A model generated the notes under the pieces. It ran no database searches, had not been told where the DNA came from, and worked only from the letters and a program-made list of their open reading frames with translations. 64,000 bases of DNA from a virus, in the IMG/VR virus record IMGVR_UViG_3300045988_072133, positions 39,171 to 103,170 of that record. One strand, written 5' to 3'. Below are positions 15,061-41,373 of the stretch, piece by piece. Position 1 is the first letter of the stretch, and every line of letters starts with the position of its first letter. Both the position numbers and the translations under genes were made by a program.

Positions 15061-17457
15061 TTATTTACTAGTACTAGATGGTTTAGGCTTGGCTTTCTTA
15101 ATAGCAAGATCTTTTTCTTTAATGTCTATCTCCTTTGATAACTTAGTCTTATCAAAAGCTAATCTTTCATTAAACTGCCTTATCTGTTCATCTAACTTCG
15201 CTCGTTCCATAGAGTTGTCTTGAACTTCTGGGACTTCATTCTCTGCATTTCCAGATTGTTTAATATGCTCAATAAGAATCTTAGTGTCATTATCGCGCTG
15301 ATTAAGCATATCTTGGAAATTCATCTCAGCCTGCTTCATTTCCATCTGAGTCTGCATTTGCTGTTGTGCTATTTCTTGTTCCTGCTGAGCTTGTTCAGCT
15401 TGACGTTCTTGAATAGCTTGCTCGTCTTTCTCAATAGTCCTACGAATCTCTGACAGAGATGATGACGTATAAATCTTCATTATTGAAGAGAATGAGAGAG
15501 TTTGATTCTGCAAAGCAGCTTGTGCTAAAGCATCAAGTTTTGAAGCGAGATTCTGAGTTTCAGGAGAGGCATCTACTACAATTCCATAGTCGCTATCTGC
15601 AAAAGTGTCTCCATCAATTTCAAGAGATTTTATAGCTCCATCAGAGGTGATATACTGGAATTTCTTATTTCTACCTCTCATAGCTATTTTAGCTGTCTCT
15701 AAGAAACATTCAAGGGCTCTCCTTTTAACATCATCGTGCATTGTAAATAACCATTCTGTAATATGAGAAGATTGTAAATTTGATCTTTCAACACCACCAA
15801 CAGTTTCACGGTTACTAATCTGACCCTCTCGCTGTCGAGTAATACCAGCAACCTCTCCCATCTCATTTTTAATAAATTCTAGGAGATTAATGTGTTCCTG
15901 AATATAATTACCCTGTTCAGCATCTATAACTCCATTAGACTGAATATTTAGAGCTCCTACAACCTTACCTTGAGCAGCTCCTCCATTTCCCTCCTTAAAG
16001 CTATCTGTAACAGCAACATGATTTACTTTTGCATAGTATAACCACTTGTCTATCTCCCAGCCTTTAGGAACCATAGCAAGATCTAGTTTTACAATTTTAC
16101 CCCAGTTAGCAGCAATAGCTTTATTAAGCCTATCGTAGATAACGTCGTAAAAATAAGCAAAAGGCTTCATCATATCTACTAAAGAGAAAGGTCTAGAATC
16201 ATTAAGGTTATACATAGATCCTACAATACCAAAATGACATCTAGATGGATTAGAAAGTCTATTATACTGTACTATCCTAGGTCTCATATTAACATAAATA
16301 TCTGGACCTATTTTAGTACCTTCCCATGCTTCATTAATCCAAAAGATCTCTTCTTCTTCACCAGCTTCTTTATCTATAATGTAGGTTTCTGGATAAAAAT
16401 CAAAGAGCTCTTCGCCAGTCTCAGGATCATAAGATTTTACCTTCTTGATCTTTCTCTTACTCTTCCAATAAAGTCTTAATACTCTAATATTACCTTGGAG
16501 ATCATAGTAGTTACTCGTTGCTGAAAATCCAGATTGTCCCATCAGTAGAAAATTCTCTATTACAGTACCTCCTGAAATATCTGTGCCATCGATCTCAGCA
16601 GTATTAATAAAGGCATTTCTTTCATCAATGTTGTACATAGAATCACTACTAAAAGTACTAGCTAGTTTATCTATACTATCAACATCTTTTTTAGATAGAA
16701 CATCAAAGTAAGTATCTAAGATTCTACCTGGACTCCAAAAGTCTATAAGTATTATTAGATCTGCATCCTCAACTTTATTAGAAAAACCATTTTTGAAAAT
16801 ATGAACTTTTAAAGGATTAAGTCTTTCAAAAGTAGGCTCGCCCCCAACAATATCACATTGATAGATTTCCTCACCACAAATCATTGCATCCATAAACCCA
16901 TCATTAAATATTCTGGGTATATTTAGCTCTTTCATGTAATGAGAAAGAACAGTACTAGCTCTCATTTCGATAATATCTTGCCATTGATAATCAAAATAGT
17001 AAGATAACTTATCTAGTTCTTTATTAAACTCCTCCTCTGACAAGTTCTCATCTTCTATCATAGCCTGAACTTGTTCTTGGAGCATTGCTAATTTACTATT
17101 CTCTATCTCTGAAATAGAATTGGGATTAGTTACAACAACTTTAAATTCAAATCTTCTCTTCGCTTCTTCTCCTTGGAGAACATGAAGCTTTGAGTTCATA
17201 ATAGGGAAATGCTGAATAGATTCTGGAACATATAGTGCATTGACATTGTCTGGATTAAGAATTAACTCTACATCTCTCATATCTAAAACACCATTTATGA
17301 GATTATAGTTAATTCTCTTCTTCAACAGAGAATTCCGCACCATATTGCCAAAATAGTAAGTTCTTTTGTCGGCCCAATCAAGATGCTGTTTTCTCCACTC
17401 CTTAGTTTTTTTACTATAAGACAACATCTGCGGGGGTAAGTTCTTTAAATCTATCAT
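15061..17457 (-). CDS. portal protein (798 aa)
   Basis: Size and position directly downstream of TerL. Long Lys/Glu/Gln-rich C-terminal coiled-coil tail as in crAss-like portals. Confidence 0.65.
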   Translation of the reverse strand: MIDLKNLPPQMLSYSKKTKEWRKQHLDWADKRTYYFGNMVRNSLLKKRINYNLINGVLDMRDVELILNPDNVNALYVPESIQHFPIMNSKLHVLQGEEAKRRFEFKVVVTNPNSISEIENSKLAMLQEQVQAMIEDENLSEEEFNKELDKLSYYFDYQWQDIIEMRASTVLSHYMKELNIPRIFNDGFMDAMICGEEIYQCDIVGGEPTFERLNPLKVHIFKNGFSNKVEDADLIILIDFWSPGRILDTYFDVLSKKDVDSIDKLASTFSSDSMYNIDERNAFINTAEIDGTDISGGTVIENFLLMGQSGFSATSNYYDLQGNIRVLRLYWKSKRKIKKVKSYDPETGEELFDFYPETYIIDKEAGEEEEIFWINEAWEGTKIGPDIYVNMRPRIVQYNRLSNPSRCHFGIVGSMYNLNDSRPFSLVDMMKPFAYFYDVIYDRLNKAIAANWGKIVKLDLAMVPKGWEIDKWLYYAKVNHVAVTDSFKEGNGGAAQGKVVGALNIQSNGVIDAEQGNYIQEHINLLEFIKNEMGEVAGITRQREGQISNRETVGGVERSNLQSSHITEWLFTMHDDVKRRALECFLETAKIAMRGRNKKFQYITSDGAIKSLEIDGDTFADSDYGIVVDASPETQNLASKLDALAQAALQNQTLSFSSIMKIYTSSSLSEIRRTIEKDEQAIQERQAEQAQQEQEIAQQQMQTQMEMKQAEMNFQDMLNQRDNDTKILIEHIKQSGNAENEVPEVQDNSMERAKLDEQIRQFNERLAFDKTKLSKEIDIKEKDLAIKKAKPKPSSTSK

Positions 17458-17557: not shown

Positions 17558-19861
17558 CTAATTATCCTTATGTAGATATTTAGCAAACCTATAATCATAA
17601 TTCCTAGTAAAGAAATCATCATTACCTAAGTAATCTGCTTGATCTACATTGATAACTTCAGAAGGAGATAAATTACCACAAAGCATGAGTTTTTGCTCTC
17701 GTAGCAACATGAGCATTAATAAGGCATCGTAACGGTCAAAGTTGCTATCGGGATTCCACATAGATAACTCTTTCATGAGAGCTCTATAATAGCACCTATT
17801 AATGTTATTTATAGTGATTTCTGCCTCTTCTTCATGTCCATCTATAGTAACCTTCGTTACAACTTTAAGAGGCTTTAAAAGCCAGTCTCTGATGCGTGTA
17901 CGGCCATATGTTTGAACTGGTTGTGTAGCATTAACTCCTTTAGCCTTATTACCAAAGAAATTTCCCTTAACAATCTCTTTATCTTTTAAAAACTCAGGAA
18001 TGTCAGATAGTAAATACAAACAGTTTGTTTTAGAAAAATATGTGAATAAACCCTTCTTATTATTCTCATAGAGTAATTCAGCATTATAGAATAAACAAAT
18101 ACGTCTACAGGTTTCATAGTAATCCTCTGCAAACATAGGTCTACCTACATATTCACAAACTAGTTCATCAGTAAATAAATCTAGTACATAGATTGATCCA
18201 AGAGACATAGTGTCAGATACATCATCATCATAAGGGTCAGCACCTGCTATATAACGTCCCCAAGGTACTTTGCCATCAGGACCTTTAATGGGCATCTTAT
18301 TAATATGTACAGCTCCTTCAAGCTTGTTATCTTTATGAGGATAATCTAAAATAGGCTTTACATCCGCATCTGGAGTAAATTCAACTTTCCCTTCTTTAGT
18401 CTGAACAAGTCTTCCAACCCACATATCGTCTAAACTCTTAGGATTCTGATCTAATTCTAGAATACGATCATTTAATTTATCAGAAGGAAAAATATTACTA
18501 TCCCTACGCATAATAGCATCTGTGATAGTAAATGCATACTCAGCTTTACGACGTGTGAGCTGAATAGGATCAGATGAGTTATACTTTAGGATTACACGAT
18601 GTTTAATCTCTTCTAAAATAGCTCCTACAACATCAGATACACCATCTTCATTGTAAAAACCTTTAGAATTAAGGTAACTAGGGAAGAAGAATATTGTTCG
18701 CCTAGCTCCTACAGCTCCTTTATCGAAAACATTTGGGAGAGAGTATACTGAATAACCATCCGGATAATTAATCATCTCAAGAGCTCCCATAAAATCTGAA
18801 CCCTCAGAACCTCCTGTACCAAAGGCTATTGCTTGTCCAAAAGCCGCAGCTGCATTCTCCTGAACATTAGGTAAAGCTGTCTGCCATACATCTAGAAATT
18901 TCGGGAAAGTACCAAACTCTTCATAAAGCATTCTATTCGAACGTTTACCACGAATCTTGTCAGGATCATCTTTAACAGCTACCCCTAATACTTCATTTTG
19001 AGAACCCCTAGGAATCATTGAATCCTTATCGATATACCCCGAAATCCACTGCATCTCTGAAAGAGAGTTCTTAAGTCTAGCACGAGGAAATTGAGTGTTT
19101 TTAGCACAGAAATCTATACCATCAATAAATTTGTTAAGAGTACCGTCCTTAATAAGATACTCCTTCTGATATGCCGTTACAAGACATTTAACCTTATCAT
19201 AAGAAATAGAATTCTCTCCTAAGAGGAAGAATTTACATAGAATGGCAGCTGCATAATATGACTTCGATTTACCACGAGAAGCAATCTCAACAGAATGCTT
19301 TCCTCCTACAAAATCATCATATAAACCACCATTACGGGCTTGATATTGATAGTGAGCCCTAAGATAAACACCTTCCCAGCATTCAGGAAAGTCTACAACA
19401 CGATCACCTATGCGAGTACCTTTACGTATCTTAGTCTGAATAATAGGTAAATAATTTAAGTAGAAATAAAAATCTCCAGGAATCCATTCCCCATCTTCAG
19501 GTCTAACCATACCATCTAAGCACCTACGAACTTCTCGTGTTAACCACATACCAAACTCTGATTTAGGATTTGCATCAGGACGAAGCTTAGTATAGCAACC
19601 ATATTTTTGATAGTGTATAGCAGCTGGCCTAAAGTAGTCCATATTCTCTAATATATGTGGCTTACAAATATCTACGATAATCCTGCCAAAAGAGTCACGA
19701 GGTCTATCTTTAGCTCGTTGACGATCTGGTGAGATAAGATTCTTAATAAATTCTACATTAGTGATAATTTCTAAGAAATCATTCCATACTTCTGTAGATA
19801 AAGAATCTCTAAGTTCTTCTGTAATAGGTGTCTGATATTTATTAGTATCTATAAGTACCAT
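17558..19861 (-). CDS. terL: terminase large subunit (767 aa)
   Basis: Walker-A-like SRGKSKS after a long N-terminal region. Large size typical of crAss-like TerL. Adjacent to portal. Confidence 0.75.
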   Translation of the reverse strand: MVLIDTNKYQTPITEELRDSLSTEVWNDFLEIITNVEFIKNLISPDRQRAKDRPRDSFGRIIVDICKPHILENMDYFRPAAIHYQKYGCYTKLRPDANPKSEFGMWLTREVRRCLDGMVRPEDGEWIPGDFYFYLNYLPIIQTKIRKGTRIGDRVVDFPECWEGVYLRAHYQYQARNGGLYDDFVGGKHSVEIASRGKSKSYYAAAILCKFFLLGENSISYDKVKCLVTAYQKEYLIKDGTLNKFIDGIDFCAKNTQFPRARLKNSLSEMQWISGYIDKDSMIPRGSQNEVLGVAVKDDPDKIRGKRSNRMLYEEFGTFPKFLDVWQTALPNVQENAAAAFGQAIAFGTGGSEGSDFMGALEMINYPDGYSVYSLPNVFDKGAVGARRTIFFFPSYLNSKGFYNEDGVSDVVGAILEEIKHRVILKYNSSDPIQLTRRKAEYAFTITDAIMRRDSNIFPSDKLNDRILELDQNPKSLDDMWVGRLVQTKEGKVEFTPDADVKPILDYPHKDNKLEGAVHINKMPIKGPDGKVPWGRYIAGADPYDDDVSDTMSLGSIYVLDLFTDELVCEYVGRPMFAEDYYETCRRICLFYNAELLYENNKKGLFTYFSKTNCLYLLSDIPEFLKDKEIVKGNFFGNKAKGVNATQPVQTYGRTRIRDWLLKPLKVVTKVTIDGHEEEAEITINNINRCYYRALMKELSMWNPDSNFDRYDALLMLMLLREQKLMLCGNLSPSEVINVDQADYLGNDDFFTRNYDYRFAKYLHKDN

Positions 19862-20433
19862 TAATCACCTCCTCCTAAGAATGACTTCATCCCATCTTCA
19901 AGGATCGCCTTTTGCTTCATACCTCTCATAGTACCCATATCTTCAATTTCTTTAGATACAGCTTTTTCAGCATCCGCAAGCTCCTTAACAAGACTAGGGA
20001 CTTGTTTTACTGCGGTCATAACTTGACCTATATTAAACACTAGTTTACCATTAGCGTCTTTCTCTGTTAAATCTATAGATCTAAAAGTATTACGAATATT
20101 ATCAATAATAACTCTTGTATCTTGTAATAGTAAAGAAGAAGATGTTGTAGTTAGGTATTTATAAAGTTCTATAGCTTCTAAAACCTGCTTATCTGGTTTC
20201 CAATCAGCTTCTAATCCTATACTATCTTTAACACGTAAATCTCTGTCTGCCTCTATAATTTCGAAGGAAAAATCTGACCTTGGATCATACATAAAGTATA
20301 AGTAAGCTAACTCTTTCATAGCCCTTGTTTTATCCTTAGTCCTGTCCCTATCTACAAGTTTCTTAAATGGTCTTAGAGCATAAGCCTCTTCAGAAATCTT
20401 TAAATTATAGTCCTTATATGTAAATAGCTTCAT
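19861..20433 (-). CDS. hypothetical protein upstream of TerL (190 aa), possible small terminase subunit
   Basis: Stop overlaps the TerL start (ATGGTAA arrangement). Position only; no motif. Confidence 0.25.
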   Translation of the reverse strand: MKLFTYKDYNLKISEEAYALRPFKKLVDRDRTKDKTRAMKELAYLYFMYDPRSDFSFEIIEADRDLRVKDSIGLEADWKPDKQVLEAIELYKYLTTTSSSLLLQDTRVIIDNIRNTFRSIDLTEKDANGKLVFNIGQVMTAVKQVPSLVKELADAEKAVSKEIEDMGTMRGMKQKAILEDGMKSFLGGGD

Positions 20434-20471
20434 ATCAAAAAAGCTCCCTACTTGTGATAGGGAGCGTTAAA

Positions 20472-20852
20472 TTAACATACTAGTTTCTTAGCCTTCGGAG
20501 GAGTAACTTCTGTTACTTCCCAATCAAAGTCATCCACTTTAAAGAAGATATTGGCACTGTCAATAAGTAGTGCAATCTTACCATCTATCTCAAACATGGG
20601 GATCTCAAAATCTAGAGTTTCATTATAAAACTCATCCGGCATGTCTGCTTTGGTCTCATCTTTAGTGAAACGCTTCCGAGCGTACTTTGAGAAGTCAATC
20701 TGTACCAGATCCCCAGGTTTATATTCTCGTACTCCAGGTCCTACAGCAATAACTTCCTGTACTTCTTTAAGCATACCTACAGAGTCTTTTTCAATAAGAC
20801 CTGCTTCACTTACACACTCTTCCTCAGTGTAAGTATTAGATGTCACTATCAT
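20472..20852 (-). CDS. GroES-like co-chaperonin (Cpn10 fold), about 126 aa from the internal Met
   Basis: Block pattern KMIVTS / EEECVSEAGLIE / QEVIAVGPGV / YKPGDLVQIDF / EIDGKIALLIDSANIFFKV parallels the GroES blocks RVIVKR / ETKSAGGIVL / GEVLAVGNG / VKVGDIVIF / EEVLIMSESDILAIV. The upstream ATG at 20951 lies inside the neighbouring gene, so the start is taken at M34 (plus cat 20850-20852). Confidence 0.45.
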   Translation of the reverse strand: MIVTSNTYTEEECVSEAGLIEKDSVGMLKEVQEVIAVGPGVREYKPGDLVQIDFSKYARKRFTKDETKADMPDEFYNETLDFEIPMFEIDGKIALLIDSANIFFKVDDFDWEVTEVTPPKAKKLVC

Positions 20853-21159
20853 CTTCGTGAATGGAGGTGTCACCTTCTTTATCTTGAACTGCTTTCTTTG
20901 CATATTCTTTAAATCGCTTATTAAGGAATTGAGCTCGGGAATATGTTGCATAAAACTTGCCTAAGCTAGGAACATTAATGCTAGTCTGCATCTTTGTAAA
21001 CTCTTCTTCTGTCATTTCCTCATTTACAGGAACATTTTCCAATGTATTCTTAACCCAATTCCAATATTCTCTATAAGCTATTTCTACTACGTCATCTGGC
21101 ATATCTAATTTCTTAGCAGCAGCCAAAATTATATCTTGGAGAGTCTTATTATTTATCAT
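20836..21159 (-). CDS. hypothetical protein (107 aa)
   Basis: ORF in a dense small-gene block. Confidence 0.35.
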   Translation of the reverse strand: MINNKTLQDIILAAAKKLDMPDDVVEIAYREYWNWVKNTLENVPVNEEMTEEEFTKMQTSINVPSLGKFYATYSRAQFLNKRFKEYAKKAVQDKEGDTSIHEDDSDI

Positions 21160-21562
21160 AACTAATCCTAAAATTTAGTAATAGCCTATAAGAGTCCTCT
21201 TCATATTCTAAAGAGGGAATGTATCTTTTACTAATTGTATTATTAGTAATAACTCCTGCTTTTCGTAGATTTGTTAATACTGACTGAAAGTTTCCCGGAG
21301 ATATGCCTAAGCTTCCTACAATACCTTTTTTAATCTCATCAGTGAACAAAACTTTGTCCAGTATATCATCATCTGTAATTGTTCTAGATAATTCAAATCT
21401 ACGTTGTAATAGTGCTGCTAACACTGCGACTTCCCTACCAGGTAATCTATGTAAAGGCTTAAGAAACTCTAGCCAGAGCTTAAAAAAGTTGAGACTAGAG
21501 GTCTTTAAATTGGTAGAGATAGACACAATGTCAGTATTCTTAGTCATATCCCGCTTACTCAT
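21149..21562 (-). CDS. winged-helix DNA-binding protein (137 aa)
   Basis: Segment GIVGSLGISPGNFQSVLTNLRKAGVI resembles a MarR/wHTH recognition helix. Confidence 0.35.
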   Translation of the reverse strand: MSKRDMTKNTDIVSISTNLKTSSLNFFKLWLEFLKPLHRLPGREVAVLAALLQRRFELSRTITDDDILDKVLFTDEIKKGIVGSLGISPGNFQSVLTNLRKAGVITNNTISKRYIPSLEYEEDSYRLLLNFRISYDK

Positions 21563-21870
21563 TATTCTACATCTTTATCTGCTTCACAAGTTTCACATGA
21601 ATCCGGTTCAGGAATTGTGAGCATATTCTCAATATTAATAACCGCTTTACTTACAAAATCTTCACTAAAGAGATCCTTATACTTAAGGACGTTGAATAAA
21701 CTATCAAGGCGTTTACCCATAACAACTTCCATAGCTCGATTGTACTCTACTAATAGCTGCTGATACTCTTTATGCTTATTCTGTAGCTGTACCTGTAGGT
21801 TATTAGCGATATCCTTAAGTTGCTCATAGTTTAACTTCTCCGGCTGTTTTGCTTCCATAGCTTTAGTCAT
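21562..21870 (-). CDS. hypothetical protein with C-terminal Cys cluster (102 aa)
   Basis: ORF ending in PEPDSCETCEADKDVE. Confidence 0.35.
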   Translation of the reverse strand: MTKAMEAKQPEKLNYEQLKDIANNLQVQLQNKHKEYQQLLVEYNRAMEVVMGKRLDSLFNVLKYKDLFSEDFVSKAVINIENMLTIPEPDSCETCEADKDVE

Positions 21871-21872
21871 AA

Positions 21873-22130
21873 TTAAAATTCTTTACCATATTTAGCTCTG
21901 TAGAGAGCATTCCATTCATTAATAGACGTTGTAGATATATCTGTACTACCACAATCATTACAATATTCAGAGATGCCTGATTCATTATAGGCCATAATTG
22001 CTAAACTAAGGCACTTTTTACAGTAGAATACAGGCTCTCTATTATAGTCCTCTTTACTCCACTTAACCTTCTCAAAATCGGAAGGAGACTCTAAAGGAGG
22101 ACACTTAGGCTTAATTAATTCTCCTTCCAT
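21873..22130 (-). CDS. zinc-ribbon protein (85 aa)
   Basis: CxxC ... CNDC pairs: KPKCPP, YCKKCLS, YCNDCGS. Confidence 0.4.
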   Translation of the reverse strand: MEGELIKPKCPPLESPSDFEKVKWSKEDYNREPVFYCKKCLSLAIMAYNESGISEYCNDCGSTDISTTSINEWNALYRAKYGKEF

Positions 22131-22399
22131 TGTTTAAGATATTGATTAAAATCTATTTTTCTAAAAGCGTCAATAATTCTTAATTCAGTAGAACTAATAT
22201 TTTTCTCTGTCATATCCTCAGATTCATCACTTACTATAAAAAGTGTCTGAAATCCTTTATCATATAAGAGCTGAAGTTCTAGACCAATAGATACTTTATT
22301 ATTTTCAGCTGAGAATGGACCCCATAATATTAACTTATAGGGAGGAGTATAAGCTTCATTAAACGCCTCAATATAAGCTGTTAGATGCTTCATTCTCAT
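22115..22399 (-). CDS. hypothetical protein (94 aa)
   Basis: ORF overlapping the GroEL stop region. Confidence 0.35.
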   Translation of the reverse strand: MRMKHLTAYIEAFNEAYTPPYKLILWGPFSAENNKVSIGLELQLLYDKGFQTLFIVSDESEDMTEKNISSTELRIIDAFRKIDFNQYLKQWKEN

Positions 22400-23882
22400 T
22401 AATTATTACACATTTAGTAGATAAGAACATATATGCTACAGAAAGCGCATTCTCTATAGAGACTCTTGTTACTTTAGCAGGGTCTAAAATATTAGACTCT
22501 AAAGCATCTTCATAATAGATAGGCATAGTGTCAAGAATAAGCTTTCTACATGCCATGAGAGCTTTAGCTAAAATATAATATCCTTTCTTCTCTAAAGTCT
22601 TAGAGATGTCTTCCTGTATAATGCCTGCTCCTACAACTACTCCTTCTTCAATAGCAGCTCTAGTAGCACATACTGCATCCTCAATCCTATCTTTCTTCTC
22701 AGACATTTCAATTTCTGTAGGTGCTCCTACATAAATAACAGCTACTCCACCAGATAATTTAGCAATTCGAGATTTAATATCATCTATAAGATATTTAGGA
22801 TAATCGTTTTTTAATGACTCCTTAAGCATCTCTACTCTTGCTTTAATTGATTCATTAGCTTCAGTTGAACCAATAATAGTAGTATTGTCTGAAGTCACTA
22901 CGACTCTTTTAACTGTACCTAACTTAATATCATCTGTTGATGATGGATATCCCTTTAAAGGTATAATAGGTAGTTTATCATATACTGGAGATCCTGTAAT
23001 TATTGAAATATCTTCTAAAAGATCTTTCTTATATTCACCTACACCAGGCGCTCGAATTGCTGCTATTTTAAGCAATCCTCTTTGGACATTCCTAACTATA
23101 GCATTAATTACTTCAGGTGAGTAGTCATTAGCTATAAGTAGGATTTCTTCATTGTCTTGTACTATATATTCAAGGATTGAGAATAGCTCCTTAATATTAT
23201 TTAGGATACCATTGTAAATTAGTACTCTAGGATTATTTAATACTACTGCTCTATTAGCAGGGTCATTAATAAAATAAGGAGAGATATATCCCTTATTAAT
23301 TTGCATCCCTTCTACGGTTTCGGCATATGTATCAAAGCCATTAGACTCTTCTAGAGTAATAACACCATCATATCCTATCTTTGATATAACATCTGCAATT
23401 AGCGTACCTATAAATTCATCCCCATTAGCAGAAATAGTAGCTATATGCTTGATGCTATCCGGAGTATCACCAACTTTGGTGGCTAGGGATTTAATAACCT
23501 CCCTAGCGACCTCGTTGGATTTCTCTAACTCTGCTCTTATAGCTTTAGGATCTGCACCTGCAACAAGTTGCTGATAGATGAGATTGATTAAAGCTTGAGC
23601 GATGATAGTTGATGTTGTAGTCCCATCTCCTGCCATATCTGCTGTCTTAGCAGCAGCTTCTTTGACAAGCTGTACACCTACATCATATAGTGGCTCTGAA
23701 GAATTTATAGCTCTGGCTACAGTAACACCGTCCTTCGTAACCTTCGGATAGTTATCCTCATATATAACTACTGTATTACCTTTAGGTCCGAAGGTAACCT
23801 TTACAGCATCTGCTAAAAGGTCAACTCCTTTCTTAACCTCAGAAAGAGCATCTAAACCAAATACTATATCCTTACTCTTCAT
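22368..23882 (-). CDS. groEL: GroEL-family chaperonin (Cpn60), 504 aa, lacks the GGM tail
   Basis: Near-canonical GroEL motifs: LADAVKVTFGPKGNTVV (GroEL: LADAVKVTLGPKGRNVV), TKDGVTVARAI, ADMAGDGTTTSTIIAQALI (GroEL: AGDGTTTATVLAQAI), TISANGDEFIG, GYISPYFIND, EKKDRIEDAVCATRAAIEEGVV, ILDPAKVTR. Confidence 0.85.
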   Translation of the reverse strand: MKSKDIVFGLDALSEVKKGVDLLADAVKVTFGPKGNTVVIYEDNYPKVTKDGVTVARAINSSEPLYDVGVQLVKEAAAKTADMAGDGTTTSTIIAQALINLIYQQLVAGADPKAIRAELEKSNEVAREVIKSLATKVGDTPDSIKHIATISANGDEFIGTLIADVISKIGYDGVITLEESNGFDTYAETVEGMQINKGYISPYFINDPANRAVVLNNPRVLIYNGILNNIKELFSILEYIVQDNEEILLIANDYSPEVINAIVRNVQRGLLKIAAIRAPGVGEYKKDLLEDISIITGSPVYDKLPIIPLKGYPSSTDDIKLGTVKRVVVTSDNTTIIGSTEANESIKARVEMLKESLKNDYPKYLIDDIKSRIAKLSGGVAVIYVGAPTEIEMSEKKDRIEDAVCATRAAIEEGVVVGAGIIQEDISKTLEKKGYYILAKALMACRKLILDTMPIYYEDALESNILDPAKVTRVSIENALSVAYMFLSTKCVIINENEASNSLY

Positions 23883-23883
23883 A

Positions 23884-24276
23884 TTAAAGAAGTTTACTAA
23901 TAAGTTTATTCATTTCAGTAATAGCGTCTGCCAGTTCCTTAACTAAGGCTTTTGAATCAGCAGGACTAAATTCATCTTCTGTTAAATCTTCAGGAACTTT
24001 CTCATCCTTTCCCTCATTAATACATTCTCTATGAAGAATAAACCAAGACATACTGTGAATATCCTCTTGTGAGGGAACATATTCTACTGCTCCAATGGGA
24101 GTCACCAACATTAGCAAAGGTTTCTTAGGATACCCATAATCTACATGAGGTAGGACTTCCATAATTACACTGCCATTTGAGGCATATTTGGATTTTGTCA
24201 TGACTAGATTATCAGGATCCTCCATAATTTTACTTAAGGCTTCACCAAAGGTGTAATACTTTCTTCTTGCTTCCAT
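23884..24276 (-). CDS. hypothetical protein (130 aa)
   Basis: ORF immediately upstream of GroEL. Confidence 0.35.
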   Translation of the reverse strand: MEARRKYYTFGEALSKIMEDPDNLVMTKSKYASNGSVIMEVLPHVDYGYPKKPLLMLVTPIGAVEYVPSQEDIHSMSWFILHRECINEGKDEKVPEDLTEDEFSPADSKALVKELADAITEMNKLISKLL

Positions 24277-24289
24277 AATTAATTATTGA

Positions 24290-24472
24290 TTATTTCTCCT
24301 TATTTACTACTTCCTTGCCAAACTTATCAATAGCCCAGTAGGAAGCGATACCTGCAGCATAACTGCACAGACTCAACAATGTCCCATAAAAAGGGACAAT
24401 TTTAATCATTGCGACAATAGCTAAAACAACAGCTGTGCCAATCCCAATTTTAATCCAAGTTTTCTTGCTCAT
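24290..24472 (-). CDS. small membrane protein (60 aa, two predicted TM helices)
   Basis: Hydrophobic segments IGIGTAVVLAIVAMI and LLSLCSYAAGIASYWAI. Confidence 0.35.
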   Translation of the reverse strand: MSKKTWIKIGIGTAVVLAIVAMIKIVPFYGTLLSLCSYAAGIASYWAIDKFGKEVVNKEK

Positions 24473-24491
24473 AAAAGTTAAATTTAATTAG

Positions 24492-24564
24492 CTGGGAGAA
24501 CAGGGTTCGAACCTGCGTTACCTTGATTAACAGTCAAGTGCCTAAACCATTCAGCCATCTCCCA
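24492..24564 (-). tRNA. tRNA-Asn (anticodon GTT)
   Basis: Minus-strand cloverleaf: acceptor TGGGAGA/TCTCCCA, anticodon arm CTTGA-CTGTTAA-TCAAG, T-arm GCAGG-TTCGAAC-CCTGT. 73 nt. Confidence 0.7.
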
Positions 24565-24712
24565 AAGAAAGGGTTTTATGGACTTTGTAAAGAACTTTAC
24601 ATTACCAAGGGTACACCCTTACCCGTGCCAGCAGAGAACCTGCTGCATTTGACATGAATAATAGTATTTATTGACAACTACCCTTGTAGGGTTACACAAG
24701 CTAAAATAATAC

Positions 24713-24961
24713 CTATAAATACAAACTATAGCTTAGTAAACTATTAAAGGCTAGGAATTTAATTAGAAACCCAATACTACCTCCTAGTACTGTTAATATC
24801 CAATCAATCCAATCCCATTTACCTCCATGCTGTTTATCTTTAAATTCCATTCCGCTAGCTACCCCTATAGCTAATCCCAAATCAATAAAGCCTACAGGTA
24901 TAGCATAAATAAAATGCTTTCCTCTATTCGAGGCTTTAAACCATTCTAATATTCTTTTCAT
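24713..24961 (-). CDS. small multi-pass membrane protein, holin-like (82 aa)
   Basis: Two or three hydrophobic helices (FIYAIPVGFIDLGLAIGVASG; WILTVLGGSIGFLIKFLAF). Confidence 0.35.
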   Translation of the reverse strand: MKRILEWFKASNRGKHFIYAIPVGFIDLGLAIGVASGMEFKDKQHGGKWDWIDWILTVLGGSIGFLIKFLAFNSLLSYSLYL

Positions 24962-25016
24962 CTTAAATGTGATACAAAGATAAGTAAAATTTCCTATATT
25001 AGGAATGTTATAAGTA

Positions 25017-25871
25017 TTATTTTAATTTATTCCCAATAAAATCACTTATATTTTTATAAATTTCTGCTGGATAGCATTCAGTTCTACCGTTAAAGTAAAC
25101 TAAAGGCATCTTTCTTATAGGTCTAAACTGTTTATGGATTAATTTCTCTAGGTTATATATTTTTGAAGCATCTCCTTCAAATACATCTATTACTTCTACA
25201 GAATAGATTTTAGGTATTTGAATTAATCTGGTATTAATATTTTTATGAGAAGTGATTCCTACTTTTAAGAACTCCCCTTCTATTTCAGATTTTAACTTTA
25301 CAATATATAACTTTCCTATACCATTATTTTTTGAACACTGCTTCTTAAAAATATGTCGAGAATATCCTTTATATTCTAATGCACACTCTGGACATCCTGA
25401 GTGATTATGAATAGCATTAGAAACACTTACTTCAAAATCACCATGTATAGGACAAGTAATTATTACTTTATCTCTACTAGAGATAGGGTTACATTTTTCA
25501 TAAGTATAGAAATTACCTAAAGAATCTTTAATCTTTTGTAAATACTTAGATTTCTTAGTAGTAAGATTTAAGATAGTCTCTACATTAGGTGAGTACTTTT
25601 GTACTCTACAAAATTGGGCAGTTTCCTTATTTAAGACTACAATTTTAGTTCCTTCCAACTCAATAGCTTCTAAAGAGGTTTCCTTAAAAGTATTTTCATT
25701 AAGATACTTTAGATAAGAACTAGAAATCATACTTTGTACTCCAAAAGTAAATCTACTAACTGAACCTTTTACACATCTGTAAATGTAACCATCTTTCTCT
25801 ATAAGAAACTCTATATCAGATTCTCCTATAACATTGAGATTGTATCTTTCTTTATATAAATTGTAATTCAT
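25017..25871 (-). CDS. T5orf172/GIY-YIG-like domain protein with zinc-finger, putative homing-endonuclease-like protein (284 aa)
   Basis: C-terminal KLYIVKLKSEIEGEFLKVGITSHKNINTRLIQ resembles the T5orf172 core (KIGxT...R). Also CPIHGDF...CPECA Cys/His cluster. Free-standing between a tRNA and a virion gene. Confidence 0.45.
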   Translation of the reverse strand: MNYNLYKERYNLNVIGESDIEFLIEKDGYIYRCVKGSVSRFTFGVQSMISSSYLKYLNENTFKETSLEAIELEGTKIVVLNKETAQFCRVQKYSPNVETILNLTTKKSKYLQKIKDSLGNFYTYEKCNPISSRDKVIITCPIHGDFEVSVSNAIHNHSGCPECALEYKGYSRHIFKKQCSKNNGIGKLYIVKLKSEIEGEFLKVGITSHKNINTRLIQIPKIYSVEVIDVFEGDASKIYNLEKLIHKQFRPIRKMPLVYFNGRTECYPAEIYKNISDFIGNKLK

Positions 25872-25956: not shown

Positions 25957-27681
25957 TTAATAATCAAAAGGATTATAAAATCCTAATCTAACAGAGTCTA
26001 AATCTCTCTCTACACCTTTATTTCTACCAAGTTCTCTCTTATTTAAATATCTCTTAGAATGTCTCTTCATATTAGGAATATCTCCAGAATGTGCTGCCTT
26101 AGTTAAGAATTTATAATCTTTAAGTCCTGGATTATATTGAACATCTCCTAAGACTGACTGAACCTTAAACCCTAAGCTATCAAAGGATCCTTCACTAAAT
26201 CTGCTATCATAAATTTTTCTTGCCTTATCAAGATATACTCCAGCTATACTATCTAAAGTATTATTAACTTGCTCGTCTGTTAAATAACCTTGTTTTTCCA
26301 CAATTTTTTGTAGAGGATCTTTCTTTCCCTTATTAAGTTTAAACCCATATCCTATAGTCTTTTTACCACCTTCTACACTATCGTGAGGATACCAACGATT
26401 AGTCTTTTTATCATACCCATTATTTGATCTATCCTTGCCATTCTCTTCTTCTACAAATCTGCGAGTCATGTCAGCTCTAACTGCACGCTCCTTTTGGATA
26501 TCTCTTCTTTCTACATAGTTAGTCATTGGAAAATCAGTATATTCAACTTTAGGTATAATAGAAATTCCGGTATATCCTCCACTATCAAAATTATTAACTC
26601 TACGAAGTGTAGGTTTATAAGGAGAAGTAGCATATTCCCCAGGTCTGAGAGTATAATATCTCCCTGTAGATGAATCAATATAAAGGCTATAACCATCAGC
26701 CTTATCCTCCCTTATAGCCATACCAAAAGTAGGATGTTTGGGATTTTTAAGAATCATACCAGTTCTCGGGTCTCGCGAAGCCCAATGCTTAGATTTAGGA
26801 TCATACATATCACCTACTTCTTCAGCAGTCCTATAATCATAATACTGGTCAGGATTATCATACTCATCTCTTAAAGGACCTCCAAATGCAGCTAGTTTCC
26901 TACCATCCTTTTCAAGGCTAGACTTTGTAGAAGCTACATTATTAAGCAAGTGTAATAGATATTCATCAGTATAACGATTGACTATATCAGTGTCATCATA
27001 CTTCTCACGCCATTTCTTAATATCTTCTACTGAGTATTTCTTAGTAGGATCAAGCTTATTTAAATACCTAAACTGCATTAAGCGAGAGTAGATCTCATTA
27101 GCAGAATCTTTATAAGAATTATATTGCTTACCCTCTTGCAACTTATCCCCCTCAAAGCCATACCTAATAGCATTAATTTGAGGATCAGCATTTAAAGAGT
27201 GTGTTAACTCATGGACATCAGTACCAGCATAAGGACTAATGTATGATATAGCATGAGTAGAGGGATTATAAGCTCCTCCAGTATGATTAGATAGCTTCTT
27301 TATAGACTCAAATTCTGAGTCAGGAACATGTGGAAACTTCGTATTACCTAGTACATCATATTGCTTAACAGTACGTAAATTCTTTAGCTGATTCTGGTAC
27401 TCTTTAAAAGCAGCTCTATCAGACCAACTCTTAGGCAATATACTATAAGGAATCATTGTAGAACCACTATTTCTAAAGTTCTCACGAAACTGCTCTTGCC
27501 TATTAGATAACCACGAAGCTATGAAATCCTGAGCTTGAGTACTATGAACATTATCTACTTCACCACCATCAGCAAACTTATTGTAATGATCCCTCATAGC
27601 ACTAAGTTGGGTCACTCCATTTTGTAGATAGGTTTTCATTAAATTAGACCTATCTGACATTGATAACTCTTCCCACTTCAT
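25957..27681 (-). CDS. two-domain protein: HExxH zincin-like motif plus C-terminal GH24 lysozyme-like domain (574 aa)
   Basis: GTDVHELTHSL (HExxH) near residue 155. SVEGGKKTIGYGF ... YNPGL near residue 440 resembles the EG...TIGYGH signature of T4/P22-type lysozymes. Confidence 0.45.
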   Translation of the reverse strand: MKWEELSMSDRSNLMKTYLQNGVTQLSAMRDHYNKFADGGEVDNVHSTQAQDFIASWLSNRQEQFRENFRNSGSTMIPYSILPKSWSDRAAFKEYQNQLKNLRTVKQYDVLGNTKFPHVPDSEFESIKKLSNHTGGAYNPSTHAISYISPYAGTDVHELTHSLNADPQINAIRYGFEGDKLQEGKQYNSYKDSANEIYSRLMQFRYLNKLDPTKKYSVEDIKKWREKYDDTDIVNRYTDEYLLHLLNNVASTKSSLEKDGRKLAAFGGPLRDEYDNPDQYYDYRTAEEVGDMYDPKSKHWASRDPRTGMILKNPKHPTFGMAIREDKADGYSLYIDSSTGRYYTLRPGEYATSPYKPTLRRVNNFDSGGYTGISIIPKVEYTDFPMTNYVERRDIQKERAVRADMTRRFVEEENGKDRSNNGYDKKTNRWYPHDSVEGGKKTIGYGFKLNKGKKDPLQKIVEKQGYLTDEQVNNTLDSIAGVYLDKARKIYDSRFSEGSFDSLGFKVQSVLGDVQYNPGLKDYKFLTKAAHSGDIPNMKRHSKRYLNKRELGRNKGVERDLDSVRLGFYNPFDY

Positions 27682-31025: not shown

Positions 31026-31099
31026 GGGCCTTTAGCTCAGTTGGTAAGAGCAGCGAGCTCATAACTCGAAGGTCATCGGTTCAAGCCCGGTAAGGCCCA
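31026..31099 (+). tRNA. tRNA-Met/fMet (anticodon CAT)
   Basis: Acceptor GGGCCTT/AAGGCCC, D-arm GCTC-AGTTGGTAA-GAGC, anticodon loop CTCATAA, T-arm ATCGG-TTCAAGC-CCGGT. Confidence 0.85.
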
Positions 31100-31848
31100 C
31101 TAAATTTTAATTCTAAGATGTTATTATTTCTATTCCTAATGTATTGTATACAGCTATGTGCGTTGATTAATTTAGCCGAGTATAACATACCTGACTGGAT
31201 TAAATTTTGTGCATTTATTCCTGTAATAGGGTTAATAGCAGAAATTATAGCTGTACTATTCTACAGAACTTAATCTCTATTAAGAGATGAAATATTTCAT
31301 TCATCACGGACTTGTATCAAGGATGCAAGAATGTCGGCAGTTAGCCCACTGTCGTATCGAAAAGGGCATCAACCGTAACCATAATGGAACGATTGTGAGC
31401 CATGCGACCTCCTGTTAAGGCTAAATTAGTCTATTCCACAGTCGCAAAAAAGGCTTTGATACTAACCACACTCAGCAAGTATCAGCGAGGTAAGCGCCCT
31501 CGGATCAAAGCTGGTGAATACATCAGAGTCTTTGGCAAATTGGTAAACATCTCAGAGATGCCTGCCTTTTTGAGAAATTAGCAAATTATTACTGTCTAGA
31601 TCCAAATTATTTAAACTTGCTTTGAATGTAGCAGTCCCTGGATAATGGCTCATAAGACATACAATCTGGAGTCAATGTAGAACACAACTCATTAGTCTAT
31701 CAGCTCGGTATACTTCGTGAGATACCAGTGCCAGCGTCACCCCTTTAATGCGGCAGATAGTTCTAATGGGAAGCAGTTAACTAAGTCAGATGCAGTAATT
31801 TTTAATAATTTATCACACAATCGCTAACATTTAATTACACAAATCATT

Positions 31849-32136
31849 ATGCTTACCATTATTCCCAATTCAGGAAAAGCATCGCCGAAGATGCGTTTTG
31901 ACCTCAACATGGACCTTAAAGGTTGTTCTTACAGCCACAAGGTCATCGCCAACCCCAAGACTAAGCAGCCTCTCTTTCAGGAGCTAATTGGCATTGACGA
32001 AACAAATACGGGGTTTCAGCGACTCTCCTACAACTGCAAGTTTTTTGCAGGAAAGAAGCCTATCTCCTACAAGAAATTCATGGAGAAAACATTCAACAAC
32101 TACGTTCTGAACCAGGCCAAGAAGATGGCCAACTAA
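31849..32136 (+). CDS. hypothetical protein (95 aa)
   Basis: First ORF after an 750-bp ORF-poor stretch. Confidence 0.35.
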   Translation: MLTIIPNSGKASPKMRFDLNMDLKGCSYSHKVIANPKTKQPLFQELIGIDETNTGFQRLSYNCKFFAGKKPISYKKFMEKTFNNYVLNQAKKMAN

Positions 32137-32148
32137 ATCATCATTATC

Positions 32149-32340
32149 ATGTCAAAAGCAAGAGGAGCAAGTGCAGCACGATCTGCACGACGTGGTACAA
32201 ATATGTACAAAGTACGCCCCAGTAATGTAGGTAAAGGCAAACGATTCAGCCGTATACAGGTTATTTCCACGTGGGATACTCTGCATCATAAACCTATTAT
32301 TACTAAGATTATCTATCACTTTAACGACCAGCACTATTAG
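32149..32340 (+). CDS. small basic protein (63 aa)
   Basis: Arg/Lys-rich N-terminus. Confidence 0.3.
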   Translation: MSKARGASAARSARRGTNMYKVRPSNVGKGKRFSRIQVISTWDTLHHKPIITKIIYHFNDQHY

Positions 32341-32343
32341 TAT

Positions 32344-32616
32344 ATGACCATTGCTAAAGTAACTAAATACAAGGATTCTTCTGCCCGGAATGTATTCCGG
32401 GTGGGAGACCTTGTACAAAAGATTAACACTGGTGCAATAGTGTTAGTCACTCATCCTACTAACAAGAAGGGTAAATTTGGAGGTGTAGTAATAACTGTCG
32501 AGAACAACAGTAATGCTCTTATTGGAGCTCTTGGAGGTTATTCTCCTCTGGACTATCAACTTTTCTATGGATCTGTAACACTTAAATCTACGAGAGATGA
32601 GCAGAGTAAGTATTAG
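32344..32616 (+). CDS. hypothetical protein (90 aa)
   Basis: ORF in a tight array of small same-strand genes. Confidence 0.35.
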   Translation: MTIAKVTKYKDSSARNVFRVGDLVQKINTGAIVLVTHPTNKKGKFGGVVITVENNSNALIGALGGYSPLDYQLFYGSVTLKSTRDEQSKY

Positions 32617-32845
32617 TCCTCATGATAAACCTAAGTTTAACATAGGAGATATTGTAACCTACAACTCAGCAGTTTTTATGGTTACAGATGAGTGTGAAGG
32701 TAAGGTTGACGTAGATGAAAGTGAGTTTATAGGAGTAGTATTATACACTGGTTATTCGGACTATCAGATCGGAGAAGTTAGTGTATTAGAAAAGAGTGCA
32801 TTCTCTGCCTTTCATGGCACTATCACCATTAATTCTGATTTATAA
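32597..32845 (+). CDS. hypothetical protein (82 aa)
   Basis: ORF in the small-gene array. Confidence 0.35.
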   Translation: MSRVSISPHDKPKFNIGDIVTYNSAVFMVTDECEGKVDVDESEFIGVVLYTGYSDYQIGEVSVLEKSAFSAFHGTITINSDL

Positions 32846-33069
32846 TGATTTGGATCGTTTTACTCCTTGCCCTGGTGGCAACATTTTGCTTCCTGGACAA
32901 CTTGGTACAAACCTTAAACAACCCCAGGGATGTCTATGAACCTGGCTTAGGTACAACAGCAACCTATGAGAAGTACCAAAAGAAGAAGAATGCTCTGGCT
33001 ATAGATCGCATGCTTTACATGTGGGTTGCAGCCTTGTTCTGGATGATATTCGTATGTCTTTCGAATTAG
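32845..33069 (+). CDS. small membrane protein (74 aa)
   Basis: Two hydrophobic helices. ATGA coupling with the upstream gene. Confidence 0.35.
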   Translation: MIWIVLLLALVATFCFLDNLVQTLNNPRDVYEPGLGTTATYEKYQKKKNALAIDRMLYMWVAALFWMIFVCLSN

Positions 33070-33201
33070 TATCCATACTAGCTTTAATTATTATCCCATT
33101 ATTAGTACTATTACTTATGAGAGTAATAGATATTGTGATGGGATGGATTATTGCTTTTATTCTCAATCCTAAGAGTTTAATACTTACTCTTCTCGCTTCA
33201 C

Positions 33202-33462
33202 ATGAAAAAAATTCAGAATTTAGAGATAATGAGCATACCGCTCCTTAGCTCCTATCTAGCGAAGCATAAGAATGTCTTCACTAGAGATTGTGTTCTTCAA
33301 GACATCGGTCGATTTCTGACATTCCGTGAGTTGCAGTTCCTCCATAAGAATCATGGTATCAGTGATGCTGAACTGGGATTCTACATGGATATGAAAGCTC
33401 AAAATTCTTTCACGGAGAATCAGTTCAAGAAGATCCAGGAAATTCACGCAAATCTGAAGTAA
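33202..33462 (+). CDS. hypothetical protein (86 aa; true start may be the Met at 33229)
   Basis: ORF in the small-gene array. Confidence 0.35.
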   Translation: MKKIQNLEIMSIPLLSSYLAKHKNVFTRDCVLQDIGRFLTFRELQFLHKNHGISDAELGFYMDMKAQNSFTENQFKKIQEIHANLK

Positions 33463-33464
33463 TC

Positions 33465-33713
33465 ATGAATCTCACAGATCTCTTACTTTCCTGTCCTGTA
33501 CTCTATCCCAGTACTAAGGATGGTGAAGGTAATATTCTGGTTACTGATGACCAGGATAATGACTATTCAGTTGGTGTAACCCTGGATTACCTGCCTGAAG
33601 ATCACAAGTGGGTTGCATCCTACAGTGATTTTATCGAATCAACACCTACGTCTGACCCTGAAGCTGCTGTAGTAGATCTACAGAATAAGCTGAAGGTTAG
33701 AGGTCTCATGTAG
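33465..33713 (+). CDS. acidic hypothetical protein (82 aa)
   Basis: Asp/Glu-rich ORF. Confidence 0.35.
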   Translation: MNLTDLLLSCPVLYPSTKDGEGNILVTDDQDNDYSVGVTLDYLPEDHKWVASYSDFIESTPTSDPEAAVVDLQNKLKVRGLM

Positions 33714-33895
33714 GTATAAAGAAAGTGGTTGCTTGAAGCGTAACTAAGACAGCAACAGCCATTGGATAAATACGTAATTCATGAATGGCAGGTGAGGTGA
33801 CGTAGCTACTGCAGGAAAATGGCAGAGTAGATTGAAAGAGCTCCTCTTGATAGCAACCTGAGGCAAGAAGCTAAATAGCTATCTTTTTATTAACT

Positions 33896-33980
33896 GGAGA
33901 GTTGTCCGAGTGGTTTATGGTGACAGTCTTGAAAACTGTTGTACGGCAACGTACCGGGGGTTCGAATCCCTCACTCTCCG
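33896..33980 (+). tRNA. tRNA-Ser (anticodon TGA), long variable arm
   Basis: Acceptor GGAGAGT/ACTCTCC, anticodon arm ACAGT-CTTGAAA-ACTGT, variable arm GTACGGCAACGTACC, T-arm GGGGG-TTCGAAT-CCCTC. Confidence 0.85.
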
Positions 33981-34035
33981 CATATTGGGAGAAGTGGAAG
34001 TATTTAGTAATATTAACTATTTAACTTTCACTACT

Positions 34036-34179
34036 ATGAAAACAATTTCTGAAGAATTTGAAAGACTTCTACGTGAAACTGCAAGAATCCAAGAAGAATG
34101 CTTAGCAGTAGCTGAAGAAATTAAGCAGTTACTCAAATCCTACAAGAGTAATTGTAACCACTCTGAGACCGAGGAGTGA
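34036..34179 (+). CDS. small hypothetical protein (47 aa)
   Basis: The listed ORF 33910-34179 begins inside tRNA-Ser. The plausible start is the Met at 34036 (MKTISEEFERLL...). Confidence 0.3.
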   Translation: MKTISEEFERLLRETARIQEECLAVAEEIKQLLKSYKSNCNHSETEE

Positions 34180-34330
34180 AAAACTTGGTGAGTATAAACC
34201 AGTAGGTTTATTGCCTAGTAATGGCAAAGGGTTCCTATATACTATAAATAAAACCCTGAGATAATTACCAGCTAGTAACTGAGGATATATGTCGGTCTTA
34301 TATCCTGAAGCACAAACACTTCCTTTCGAG

Positions 34331-34359
34331 GGGTAGGGTGTGAAAGCCCTACCCTTTTT
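34331..34359 (+). terminator. rho-independent terminator
   Basis: GGGTAGGG-(8 nt loop)-CCCTACCC followed by TTTTT. Confidence 0.6.
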
Positions 34360-34379
34360 AATGAAAAATACTGTAATTT

Positions 34380-34793: not shown

Positions 34794-34800
34794 CAATCGG

Positions 34801-34874
34801 GCTCCCTTAGCTCAGTAGGATAGAGCAATGGATTTCTAATCCATGGGTCACAGGTTCGAATCCTGTAGGGAGTA
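34801..34874 (+). tRNA. tRNA-Arg (anticodon TCT)
   Basis: Acceptor GCTCCCT/AGGGAGT (G1.U72), D-arm GCTC-AGTAGGATA-GAGC, anticodon arm ATGGA-TTTCTAA-TCCAT, T-arm ACAGG-TTCGAAT-CCTGT. Confidence 0.85.
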
Positions 34875-34895
34875 CAAACATTCAAATTTTACATT

Positions 34896-41372: not shown

Positions 41373-41373
41373 A

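Follow-up and report, generated by a model that had tools for sequence, protein, structure and literature searches.

Phage Chaperonins and the Locus under Study

Chaperonin genes of phages have been described in several forms. The co-chaperonins gp31 of T4 and CocO of RB49 use the GroEL of the host, with T4 gp31 being the precedent for a phage lid that works on a host ring. Phages EL, OBP and AR9 encode GroEL homologs of their own (gp146, gp246, and gp228, respectively); the OBP and AR9 chaperonins are single rings, while that of EL dissociates into single rings with ATP and has a substrate-binding cleft altered by many insertions and deletions (PMC9598537, PMC7185714). Viral GroEL–GroES pairs are also documented, with GroES being present on 40% (133/337) of the GroEL-bearing contigs of one marine virome (PMC5649160). 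Here, a stretch of 64,000 nucleotides (positions 39,171 to 103,170 of the IMG/VR virus record IMGVR_UViG_3300045988_072133, referred to as the window) was analyzed, in which two open reading frames (ORFs) are predicted to encode a GroEL and a divergent GroES-like (Cpn10-like) protein, referred to as the lid:

22368–23882, minus strand: GroEL/Cpn60, 504 amino acids (aa), with matches to Cpn60_TCP1, phrog_5725 and GroEL structures of the PDB

20472–20903, minus strand: putative Cpn10/GroES-like co-chaperonin, 143 aa, ortholog of crAss001 gp15

Positions 20000–24500 of the window show 82.6% nucleotide identity to the uncultured phage cr108_1 (MT774385; Crassvirales, Steigviridae, Asinivirinae, Pipoluvirus rarus), and IMG/VR contigs of 69–108 kb encode proteins of this block that are up to 97–100% identical to those of the window. 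The window belongs to a crAss-like gut phage of the Steigviridae, subfamily Asinivirinae, near Pipoluvirus. On balance, it appears probable that this phage encodes ring and lid of a group I chaperonin system, the lid capping the phage GroEL ring to fold phage proteins.

Within the same subfamily, cr111_1 and phi14:2 share the architecture of the window, with a GroEL gene upstream of the Cpn10-like gene, gp16, the gene of the large terminase subunit (TerL) and the portal gene. The crAss001 protein gp15 and its Asinivirinae orthologs are positional orthologs of the window lid and agree with it in length class, in the insertion, in the lack of a roof hairpin and in a hairpin with a T-run downstream; however, crAss001 gp15 is only 32% identical to the window lid, and crAss001 has no GroEL whereas the window phage does. 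T4 gp31 and RB49 CocO are unrelated in sequence to the window lid beyond the fold motifs. The lid differs from these two by an additional ~27-aa insertion and by its C-terminal tail, and the phage adds a GroEL of its own. Like EL gp146, OBP gp246, and AR9 gp228, the window GroEL is a phage homolog with an altered ring-ring interface, but it is much closer to bacterial GroEL (about 40–45% identity), has kept its apical groove and shares the genome with a lid gene.

Flavobacterium phage immuto has an annotated GroES>GroEL operon, while the two genes of the window lie 1.5 kb apart and have separate histories. A further pair was observed in the cultured Bacteroides phage DAC16 (178 kb), in which an 87-aa “hypothetical protein” (DAC16_261, L026 3721–3984) is encoded directly upstream of an unannotated 540-aa GroEL (DAC16_262). 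DAC16_261 reads as a canonical GroES (MNVKPLKDLVLIEP...GIIIPD...KVVAIGP), and the two genes appear to form an unannotated GroES>GroEL operon. The pairs of the marine viruses, immuto and DAC16 are adjacent, with a canonical GroES of 87–101 aa, as opposed to the 143 aa of the window lid. The GroELs of the immuto and DAC16 type are of full length (540–544 aa) and keep V264 and the 461–464 segment without a full GGM repeat, whereas the window GroEL is trimmed.

The GroEL Homolog

The GroEL ORF contains the motifs AVKVTFGPKG, DGTTTSTIIAQA, GYISPYF and EDAVCATRAAIEEGVV, and its product ends in ...NEASNSLY (...IINENEASNSLY) with no C-terminal GGM repeat tail. The length, the motifs and the lack of the tail are as described in an earlier note made from the letters of the window. 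Its identity as a GroEL, also proposed there, was borne out by hidden Markov model (HMM) searches, with matches to the Pfam family Cpn60_TCP1 (PF00118; E 2.6e-48, 165.4 bits against a cut-off of 34.3) and to phrog_5725 “chaperonin groEL” (E 1.4e-126). The best PDB matches were GroELs (E 1e-116 to 1e-105), covering residues 3–431 and a second segment, 459–494.

For residue mapping, a sequence of Escherichia coli GroEL was used as reference, its length and D87/D398 numbering being self-consistent. The nucleotide-binding and catalytic residues T30, G32, P33, D52, D87, T89–T91 (GDGTTT), I150, D398 and D495 are kept. The exceptions are L31F and G415A, together with N479 and A480, which align to Asp and Thr at the edge of the second of two deletions described below. 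Thus neither D87 nor D398, the loss of which the earlier note had taken as the mark of a non-catalytic paralog, has been lost. From these residues, the 504-aa protein is predicted to be a catalytically competent GroEL.

A database-wide search placed it in a clade of ~15 clusters with 63–99% identity, lengths of 487–505 aa and contigs of 94–105 kb. Outside this clade identity drops sharply, to 43–45% with bacterial GroELs of Bacteroidota (540–549 aa), which are the nearest non-phage relatives. The ratio of nonsynonymous to synonymous substitution (dN/dS) of both chaperonin genes against their orthologs was 0.05–0.11, and both are under strong purifying selection.

The window GroEL is ~40 residues shorter than bacterial GroELs because it lacks the GGM tail and carries deletions at ~426–434 and ~456–478 (E. 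coli numbering). In E. coli, the two rings contact each other through K105/A109–E434 and R452/E461/S463/V464, and the single-ring mutant SR1 is R452E/E461A/S463A/V464A. The deletions take out E434, E461, S463, and V464. Of the remaining positions, K105 is replaced by Gln, A109 is kept and R452 is either Arg or Lys depending on the alignment; by this residue mapping, the double-ring equatorial contact set is not retained. A double ring is typical of the Cpn60 family but not required for it, as single-ring Hsp60 and the phage chaperonins also belong, and the GGM tail is likewise common without being essential for membership. Bacteroidota GroELs end in GMGGMM-type tails with a final MM, of which no more than an MM or FM at the very end is left in the phage GroELs of DAC16 and immuto. 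Both equatorial deletions were present in every clade member down to 64% identity, which together with the low dN/dS indicates that the trimmed protein is a maintained functional form and not a product of decay.

In the apical domain, Y199, S201, Y203, F204, L237, V263, and N265 are kept. Of the eight positions of the hydrophobic groove, five are identical (Y199, Y203, F204, L237, V263), two carry the conservative changes L234F and L259I, and V264 is replaced by Arg. The groove therefore appears mostly intact, and a site able to bind a mobile loop is predicted to be still present. In E. coli, mutagenesis has identified V264 as a contact for both GroES and substrate. The position is Arg in the window, and the other two crAss GroELs have a polar residue there, the set across all three being Arg, Thr or Gln.

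The Cpn10-Like Lid Protein

The open frame of the small ORF extends, stop to stop, over 20472–20951 and contains the block QEVIAVGPGV. The strand of the ORF, its location ~1.5 kb downstream of GroEL and the EV[IL]AVG.G-type block were as given in the earlier note, but the start proposed there, 20852, is off by 51 nucleotides. In several hundred homologs a KIKK(V/I)xPxFT strand is conserved ahead of this start, with ~8–12 residues before the strand, and this N-terminal segment has a pLDDT (predicted local distance difference test) of 84–95 in the structure model. The start at 20852, which is also annotated in cr108_1, is accordingly judged from these alignments and the model to be too far downstream, and Met 20903, giving 143 aa, fits.

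In the 143-aa numbering, the protein shows an N-terminal strand (KIKKVTPPFTKMIVT), a mobile-loop-like segment at ~22–47 and the QEVIAVGPG hairpin. A family-wide insertion of ~27 aa (~70–97; pLDDT 61–65) follows the GDLVxI strand, and the C-terminal tail is ~20 aa long. The mobile-loop-like segment lies between strand 1 and the QEVIAVG strand, and in the family profile alignment its residues G35-L36-I37-E38 align to G24-I25-V26-L27 of the GroES mobile loop, with G35 invariant in an alignment of 127 sequences. The mobile-loop-like region proposed in the earlier note thus appears from the alignment to be present, with a Gly followed by hydrophobic residues of the kind that dock on helices H and I of GroEL in GroES. 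A charged residue at the third mobile-loop position is found in 23% of viral GroES sequences (PMC5649160). The roof β-hairpin is absent, the profile alignment showing a gap of ~9 residues where GroES has residues 45–57. It is likewise absent in T4 gp31 and some marine viral GroES clusters (PMC5649160), so its absence does not exclude function.

The assignment to Cpn10 depends on the family as a whole. The window protein alone gave no match to Pfam Cpn10 (PF00166) at E ≤1, nothing relevant in a PDB search and only weak PHROG matches, to phrog_931 “head morphogenesis” (E 1.3e-4) and phrog_3188 “co-chaperonin GroES” (E 1.5e-3). E. coli GroES as query did not detect the ORF in the window (E 2.4), and it was reached only by profiles or by a closer phage GroES (DAC16_261). 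Close homologs formed 13 clusters only. A profile search expanded the family to 323 representatives at 50% identity and 701 clusters at 90%. Among 131 diverse members, PF00166 was matched at E ≤0.01 by 24 (best E 9.8e-8), phrog_931 by 41 and phrog_3188 by 36. The best PDB matches of the family profile were all GroES/Cpn10 (E 2.3e-4 to 1e-3), and the aligned part takes in strand 1, the mobile loop, the VvavG hairpin and vkvGD in the N-terminal half, together with the strands at the C-terminus.

An AlphaFold2 model built from the 159-aa frame with 14 close homologs had a pLDDT of 45.6 and was unusable, whereas the 127-sequence alignment gave a pLDDT of 82.5 and a predicted template modeling score (pTM) of 0.69. 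In a Foldseek search with the latter model, the top 27 PDB hits were all Cpn10 and the BFVD hits were almost all viral GroES. Failure to model as a Cpn10 fold, which the earlier note had considered decisive against its call, was thus not seen, and by profile and model the small ORF is predicted to encode a very divergent protein of the Cpn10/GroES β-barrel fold. It was the only ORF of its kind in the window. Another candidate co-chaperonin, orf94, is of GroES size (94 aa) and would follow GroEL in the marine “GroEL>GroES” order; it was rejected, as it had no Pfam or PHROG hit and no Cpn10-like HMM match, and cr111_1 and phi14:2 have unrelated ORFs in its place.

Gene Order and Transcription

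The two chaperonin genes lie on the same strand, ~1.5 kb and five ORFs apart, with the Cpn10-like gene downstream. The features of this region and of the genes beyond it are as follows:

20443–20465, minus strand: intrinsic-terminator-like hairpin, a 9-bp stem with 5 GC pairs followed by TTTTTT

20836–22399, minus strand: five small genes separating GroEL from the Cpn10-like gene, defined by synteny, tblastn and the cr108_1 annotation and given in the next five lines

22115–22399, minus strand: orf94, directly downstream of GroEL

21873–22130, minus strand: zinc-finger-type protein, tblastn homolog of crAss001 gp11

21562–21870, minus strand: orf102, between the gp11 homolog and the VpsT-like gene

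21149–21562, minus strand: VpsT-like regulator, crAss001 gp13 homolog by tblastn

20836–21159, minus strand: HU-like protein, crAss001 gp14 homolog by tblastn

17558–19861: TerL, phrog_6681, E 7e-89

15061–17457: portal, P22_portal match

2336–3850: major capsid protein, 504 aa, crassvirus family Crass_capsid, E 2.9e-214

The adjacent, jointly inherited genes of a canonical groES-groEL operon are not what is found in the window. The ORFs flanking GroEL show no kinship between crAss lineages, and none of them is Cpn10-like.

The hairpin at 20443–20465 was the only minus-strand terminator-like site within 19500–25500, and it lies between the stop codon of the Cpn10-like gene and the start of the gp16-like gene. 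A hairpin with a T-run was found in the same intergenic spot in seven relatives of six genera (cr108_1, L015, L016, crAss001, cr85_1, cr111_1, and cr106_1). The stems in these seven are unrelated in sequence, and the same position with unrelated stems argues for a real terminator whose position is conserved. Being located after the lid gene, it would imply that this gene is the last of the upstream unit, to which GroEL also belongs in the window, and not the first of the packaging operon. No minus-strand terminator-like site was detected between GroEL and the Cpn10-like gene, and for this reason we infer that the two are co-transcribed in one apparent transcription unit. A scan for sigma-70 promoters was no better than chance, with 21 found against 24 expected in shuffled sequence.

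The earlier note had placed the pair in the packaging/morphogenesis arm, immediately upstream of TerL, portal and capsid genes. These genes do lie downstream, but a single ORF, the homolog of crAss001 gp16, separates the lid gene from TerL, and the conserved terminator sets the Cpn10-like gene apart from the packaging genes.

Distribution and History of the Two Genes

Homologs of the Cpn10-like protein were found in 50 records of an annotated phage collection, many of them labeled “putative 10kDa chaperonin” and crAss001 gp15 being among them. The gene order zinc-finger, VpsT-like, HU-like, Cpn10-like, gp16, TerL, portal is shared by crAss001, cr85_1, cr106_1, DAC17, cr111_1 and the window. 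The lid is annotated as “putative 10kDa chaperonin” in crAss001, cr85_1, and cr106_1, and DAC17 has an unannotated ortholog. No GroEL was detected in the whole genome of crAss001 (best tblastn E 0.13), nor at the Cpn10-like locus of cr85_1, cr106_1, and DAC17, for which the locus was searched. In addition, 25 PhiCrAssBcn isolates carry the Cpn10-like gene; they cannot all have GroEL, since no more than seven “Bacteroides” records came up in the search for GroEL, and the six of them that were listed are phages of the DAC16 type, 167–179 kb in size. As the lid occurs at the same position in relatives without GroEL, its synteny shows it to be ancestral in this phage group and older than GroEL. 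In most members of the group, where there is no phage GroEL to cap, the lid can presumably act only on the GroEL of the host, by analogy with gp31. The earlier note saw in the GroEL/GroES-like pair a dedicated folding system for the large capsid or portal proteins, but by this distribution the two genes are not a dedicated pair acquired jointly, since relatives that lack GroEL at the locus carry the lid among the same neighbors.

GroEL, on the other hand, is patchy and was found in three Asinivirinae genera: the lineage of the window and cr108_1, cr111_1 (Lahndsivirus; L021 4129–5661, with both chaperonin genes annotated) and Cellulophaga phage phi14:2 (Akihdevirus; g105, L025 44553–46025). 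The unannotated g096 of phi14:2 matches the lid family HMM (E 2e-11), and in all three lineages a few small genes separate the lid from GroEL, which is the upstream one of the two. The window GroEL is 28.5% identical to that of cr111_1 and 36% to that of phi14:2; pairwise, the three are 28–36% identical, and each is closer to Bacteroidota GroELs (32–46%) than to the other two. All three nevertheless share a ~10-aa deletion at E434, a shortened segment before GILDP, a polar residue at the V264 position and the lack of a GGM tail, the second deletion being largest in the window clade (~23–27 aa). In a neighbor-joining tree of GroELs, in which the Vibrio phage phiTY18 entry is a wrong ORF and is to be disregarded, the nodes bearing on one versus several captures had bootstraps of 38–57%.

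Both genes were found in unchanged order in 14 of 14 full-length related IMG/VR loci. In cr108_1 GroEL is annotated, and the Cpn10-like ortholog appears as a “hypothetical protein” with a truncated start. Phage GroELs were described in the earlier note as rare and confined mainly to large Pseudomonas phages, but tblastn detected GroEL in 287 phage records with many hosts, including phages of Vibrio, Flavobacterium, Aeromonas, Staphylococcus, and Bacteroides.

In a relative-rate comparison, the Cpn10-like protein of the window lineage was 29–37% identical to those of genera without GroEL, and the neighboring HU-like and VpsT-like proteins were equally low (33–43%). In cr111_1 the Cpn10-like protein reached 32–36%, as against mostly 52–70% for HU and VpsT, which is compatible with co-adaptation of the lid there but only suggestive.

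Proposed Mechanism and Alternative Explanations

In the proposed mechanism, the 504-aa GroEL would form an ATP-driven folding ring and the 143-aa protein would be its gp31-like lid, with a Cpn10 barrel, a long mobile loop carrying Gly-Leu-Ile and no roof hairpin. Both would be made late in infection, just before or during the expression of the head genes. The phage lid would then cap the phage ring, and possibly host GroEL as well, enclosing phage proteins for folding. On the model of T4 gp23, the prime candidate substrate would be the 504-aa major capsid protein. What favors a pairing of GroEL and lid is that the apical groove is retained and that the two genes apparently share a transcription unit.

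Several points weigh against such a pairing. The two genes are five ORFs apart, unlike the adjacent genes of bacterial and marine-virus operons. The lid is distributed independently of GroEL among the genomes compared, and the relative rates give no sign of a specific co-adaptation of the lid in the window lineage. The replacement of V264 could weaken or change lid binding. Furthermore, EL gp146, OBP gp246, and AR9 gp228 act without a co-chaperonin (PMC9598537, PMC7185714).

It is possible, though not likely, that each of the two proteins acts on its own, the GroEL needing no lid and probably forming a single ring, and the Cpn10-like protein re-tuning only host GroEL, like gp31, for the folding of phage capsid protein. 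This would agree with the presence of the lid without GroEL in crAss001 (whole genome), in cr85_1, cr106_1, and DAC17 (locus) and among the 25 PhiCrAssBcn isolates, with the non-adjacent genes, with the deletion of ring-ring contact residues, with the replacement of V264 in all three crAss GroELs and with the known phage chaperonins, which need no lid. The mobile-loop motif G-L-I-(D/E) is moreover identical in lineages with and without GroEL, so that the loop does not look adjusted to the GroEL of the phage. However, unlike EL gp146, the window GroEL keeps Y199, Y203, F204, L237, and V263 as well as the helix H/I region, both genes lie in one apparent transcription unit, and a GroEL-type ring with no built-in lid needs a cap to enclose its substrate.

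A related and rather doubtful proposal is that the crAss-type GroELs, with their loss of the inter-ring interface (E434, 461–464), the GGM tail and V264, make up a class of their own among group I chaperonins, single-ring by nature and cycling with a phage gp31-like lid, unlike the lid-independent chaperonins of EL, OBP, and AR9. The lid of such a class could dock on phage or host GroEL, and a pairing of the acidic E38 of the mobile loop with the Arg at GroEL position 264 may be envisaged as a speculation from the two sequences.

It is quite unlikely that the small ORF encodes a GroES-like barrel serving as a head-morphogenesis, structural or regulatory protein instead of a lid. The GroES-like fold is shared by the N-terminal domain of alcohol dehydrogenases, and the PHROG matches of the family are divided between head morphogenesis and co-chaperonin; the mobile-loop-like segment with its invariant glycine is found in this same family. 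Finally, an origin of the GroEL as a misassembled bacterial gene, or as a passenger recently taken from a host and now decaying without any role in the phage, might be thought of given its nearest non-phage relatives and the routine use of cpn60 as a marker of bacterial contamination in viromes, but it is effectively refuted by the low identity to any bacterial GroEL, the separate clade on contigs of 94–105 kb, the conserved phage synteny in cr108_1 and 14 IMG/VR contigs, the low dN/dS and the clade-wide deletions. A phage GroEL ring capped by the phage lid remains the favored reading of the locus.

Other Features of the Window and Its Relatives

A 284-aa ORF (25017–25871, minus strand) gave weak matches to DUF723 (E 1.6e-5) and T5orf172 (E 6.9e-4), which suggests a homing-endonuclease-like mobile gene. 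It is flanked by tRNA-Asn and two small ORFs on one side and by a homolog of a “morphogenesis protein” (25957–27681) on the other, and cr108_1 has no annotated gene at this location. Seven tRNA genes were detected in the window (24491–24564, minus strand; 31026–43720, plus strand), with only tRNA-Asn upstream of the GroEL block. Arrays of ~20 tRNAs lie upstream of the position of this block in crAss001, cr85_1, and cr111_1, with far fewer in the lineage of the window and cr108_1.

It should also be noted that in the close relatives L002, L007–L009, L011, and L016 the match to the window TerL covers the protein only from residue 199 on, ~1.6 kb downstream of where it would be expected. This implies that an insertion of ~1 kb, of the intron, intein or homing-endonuclease type, splits TerL in these relatives. 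The terminase coding sequences of cr111_1 (L021 8280–11579) and DAC17 (L023 8362–11694) measure 3.3 kb as opposed to 2.3 kb. The TerL of the window (17558–19861) is uninterrupted.

Implications for Crassvirales

In the human gut, the Crassvirales are the phages of highest abundance, and we know of no studies on the folding of their large capsid and cargo proteins. Phage GroELs are common, GroEL–GroES pairs are documented, and the GroEL of cr108_1 and both genes of cr111_1 were already annotated. A search on crAss-like phages with chaperonins found no paper discussing their GroEL- or GroES-like genes in the literature library that was covered. New here are the assignment to Cpn10 and the correction of the start for proteins of the cr108_1 type, which are mis-annotated as hypothetical proteins with a truncated start, the ancestry of the lid as against the patchy GroEL, the trimmed ring-ring interface common to the crAss-type GroELs and the apparently conserved terminator.

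Read counts of cpn60 are used to gauge bacterial contamination of gut viromes (bioRxiv 10.1101/657528). Phage-borne cpn60 could slightly inflate such estimates, although few reads would cross-map at 43–45% protein identity.

A divergent GroES-like lid is a conserved gene of a crAss-like subfamily, to which some lineages add a trimmed GroEL. The crAss-type GroELs are candidates for single-ring chaperonins with a lid still at their side; if this is true, a single-ring GroEL with its lid would be a minimal phage counterpart of the mitochondrial Hsp60/Hsp10 system. Lineages carrying the lid with and without a phage GroEL would offer a natural comparison between the takeover and the replacement of the host chaperonin.

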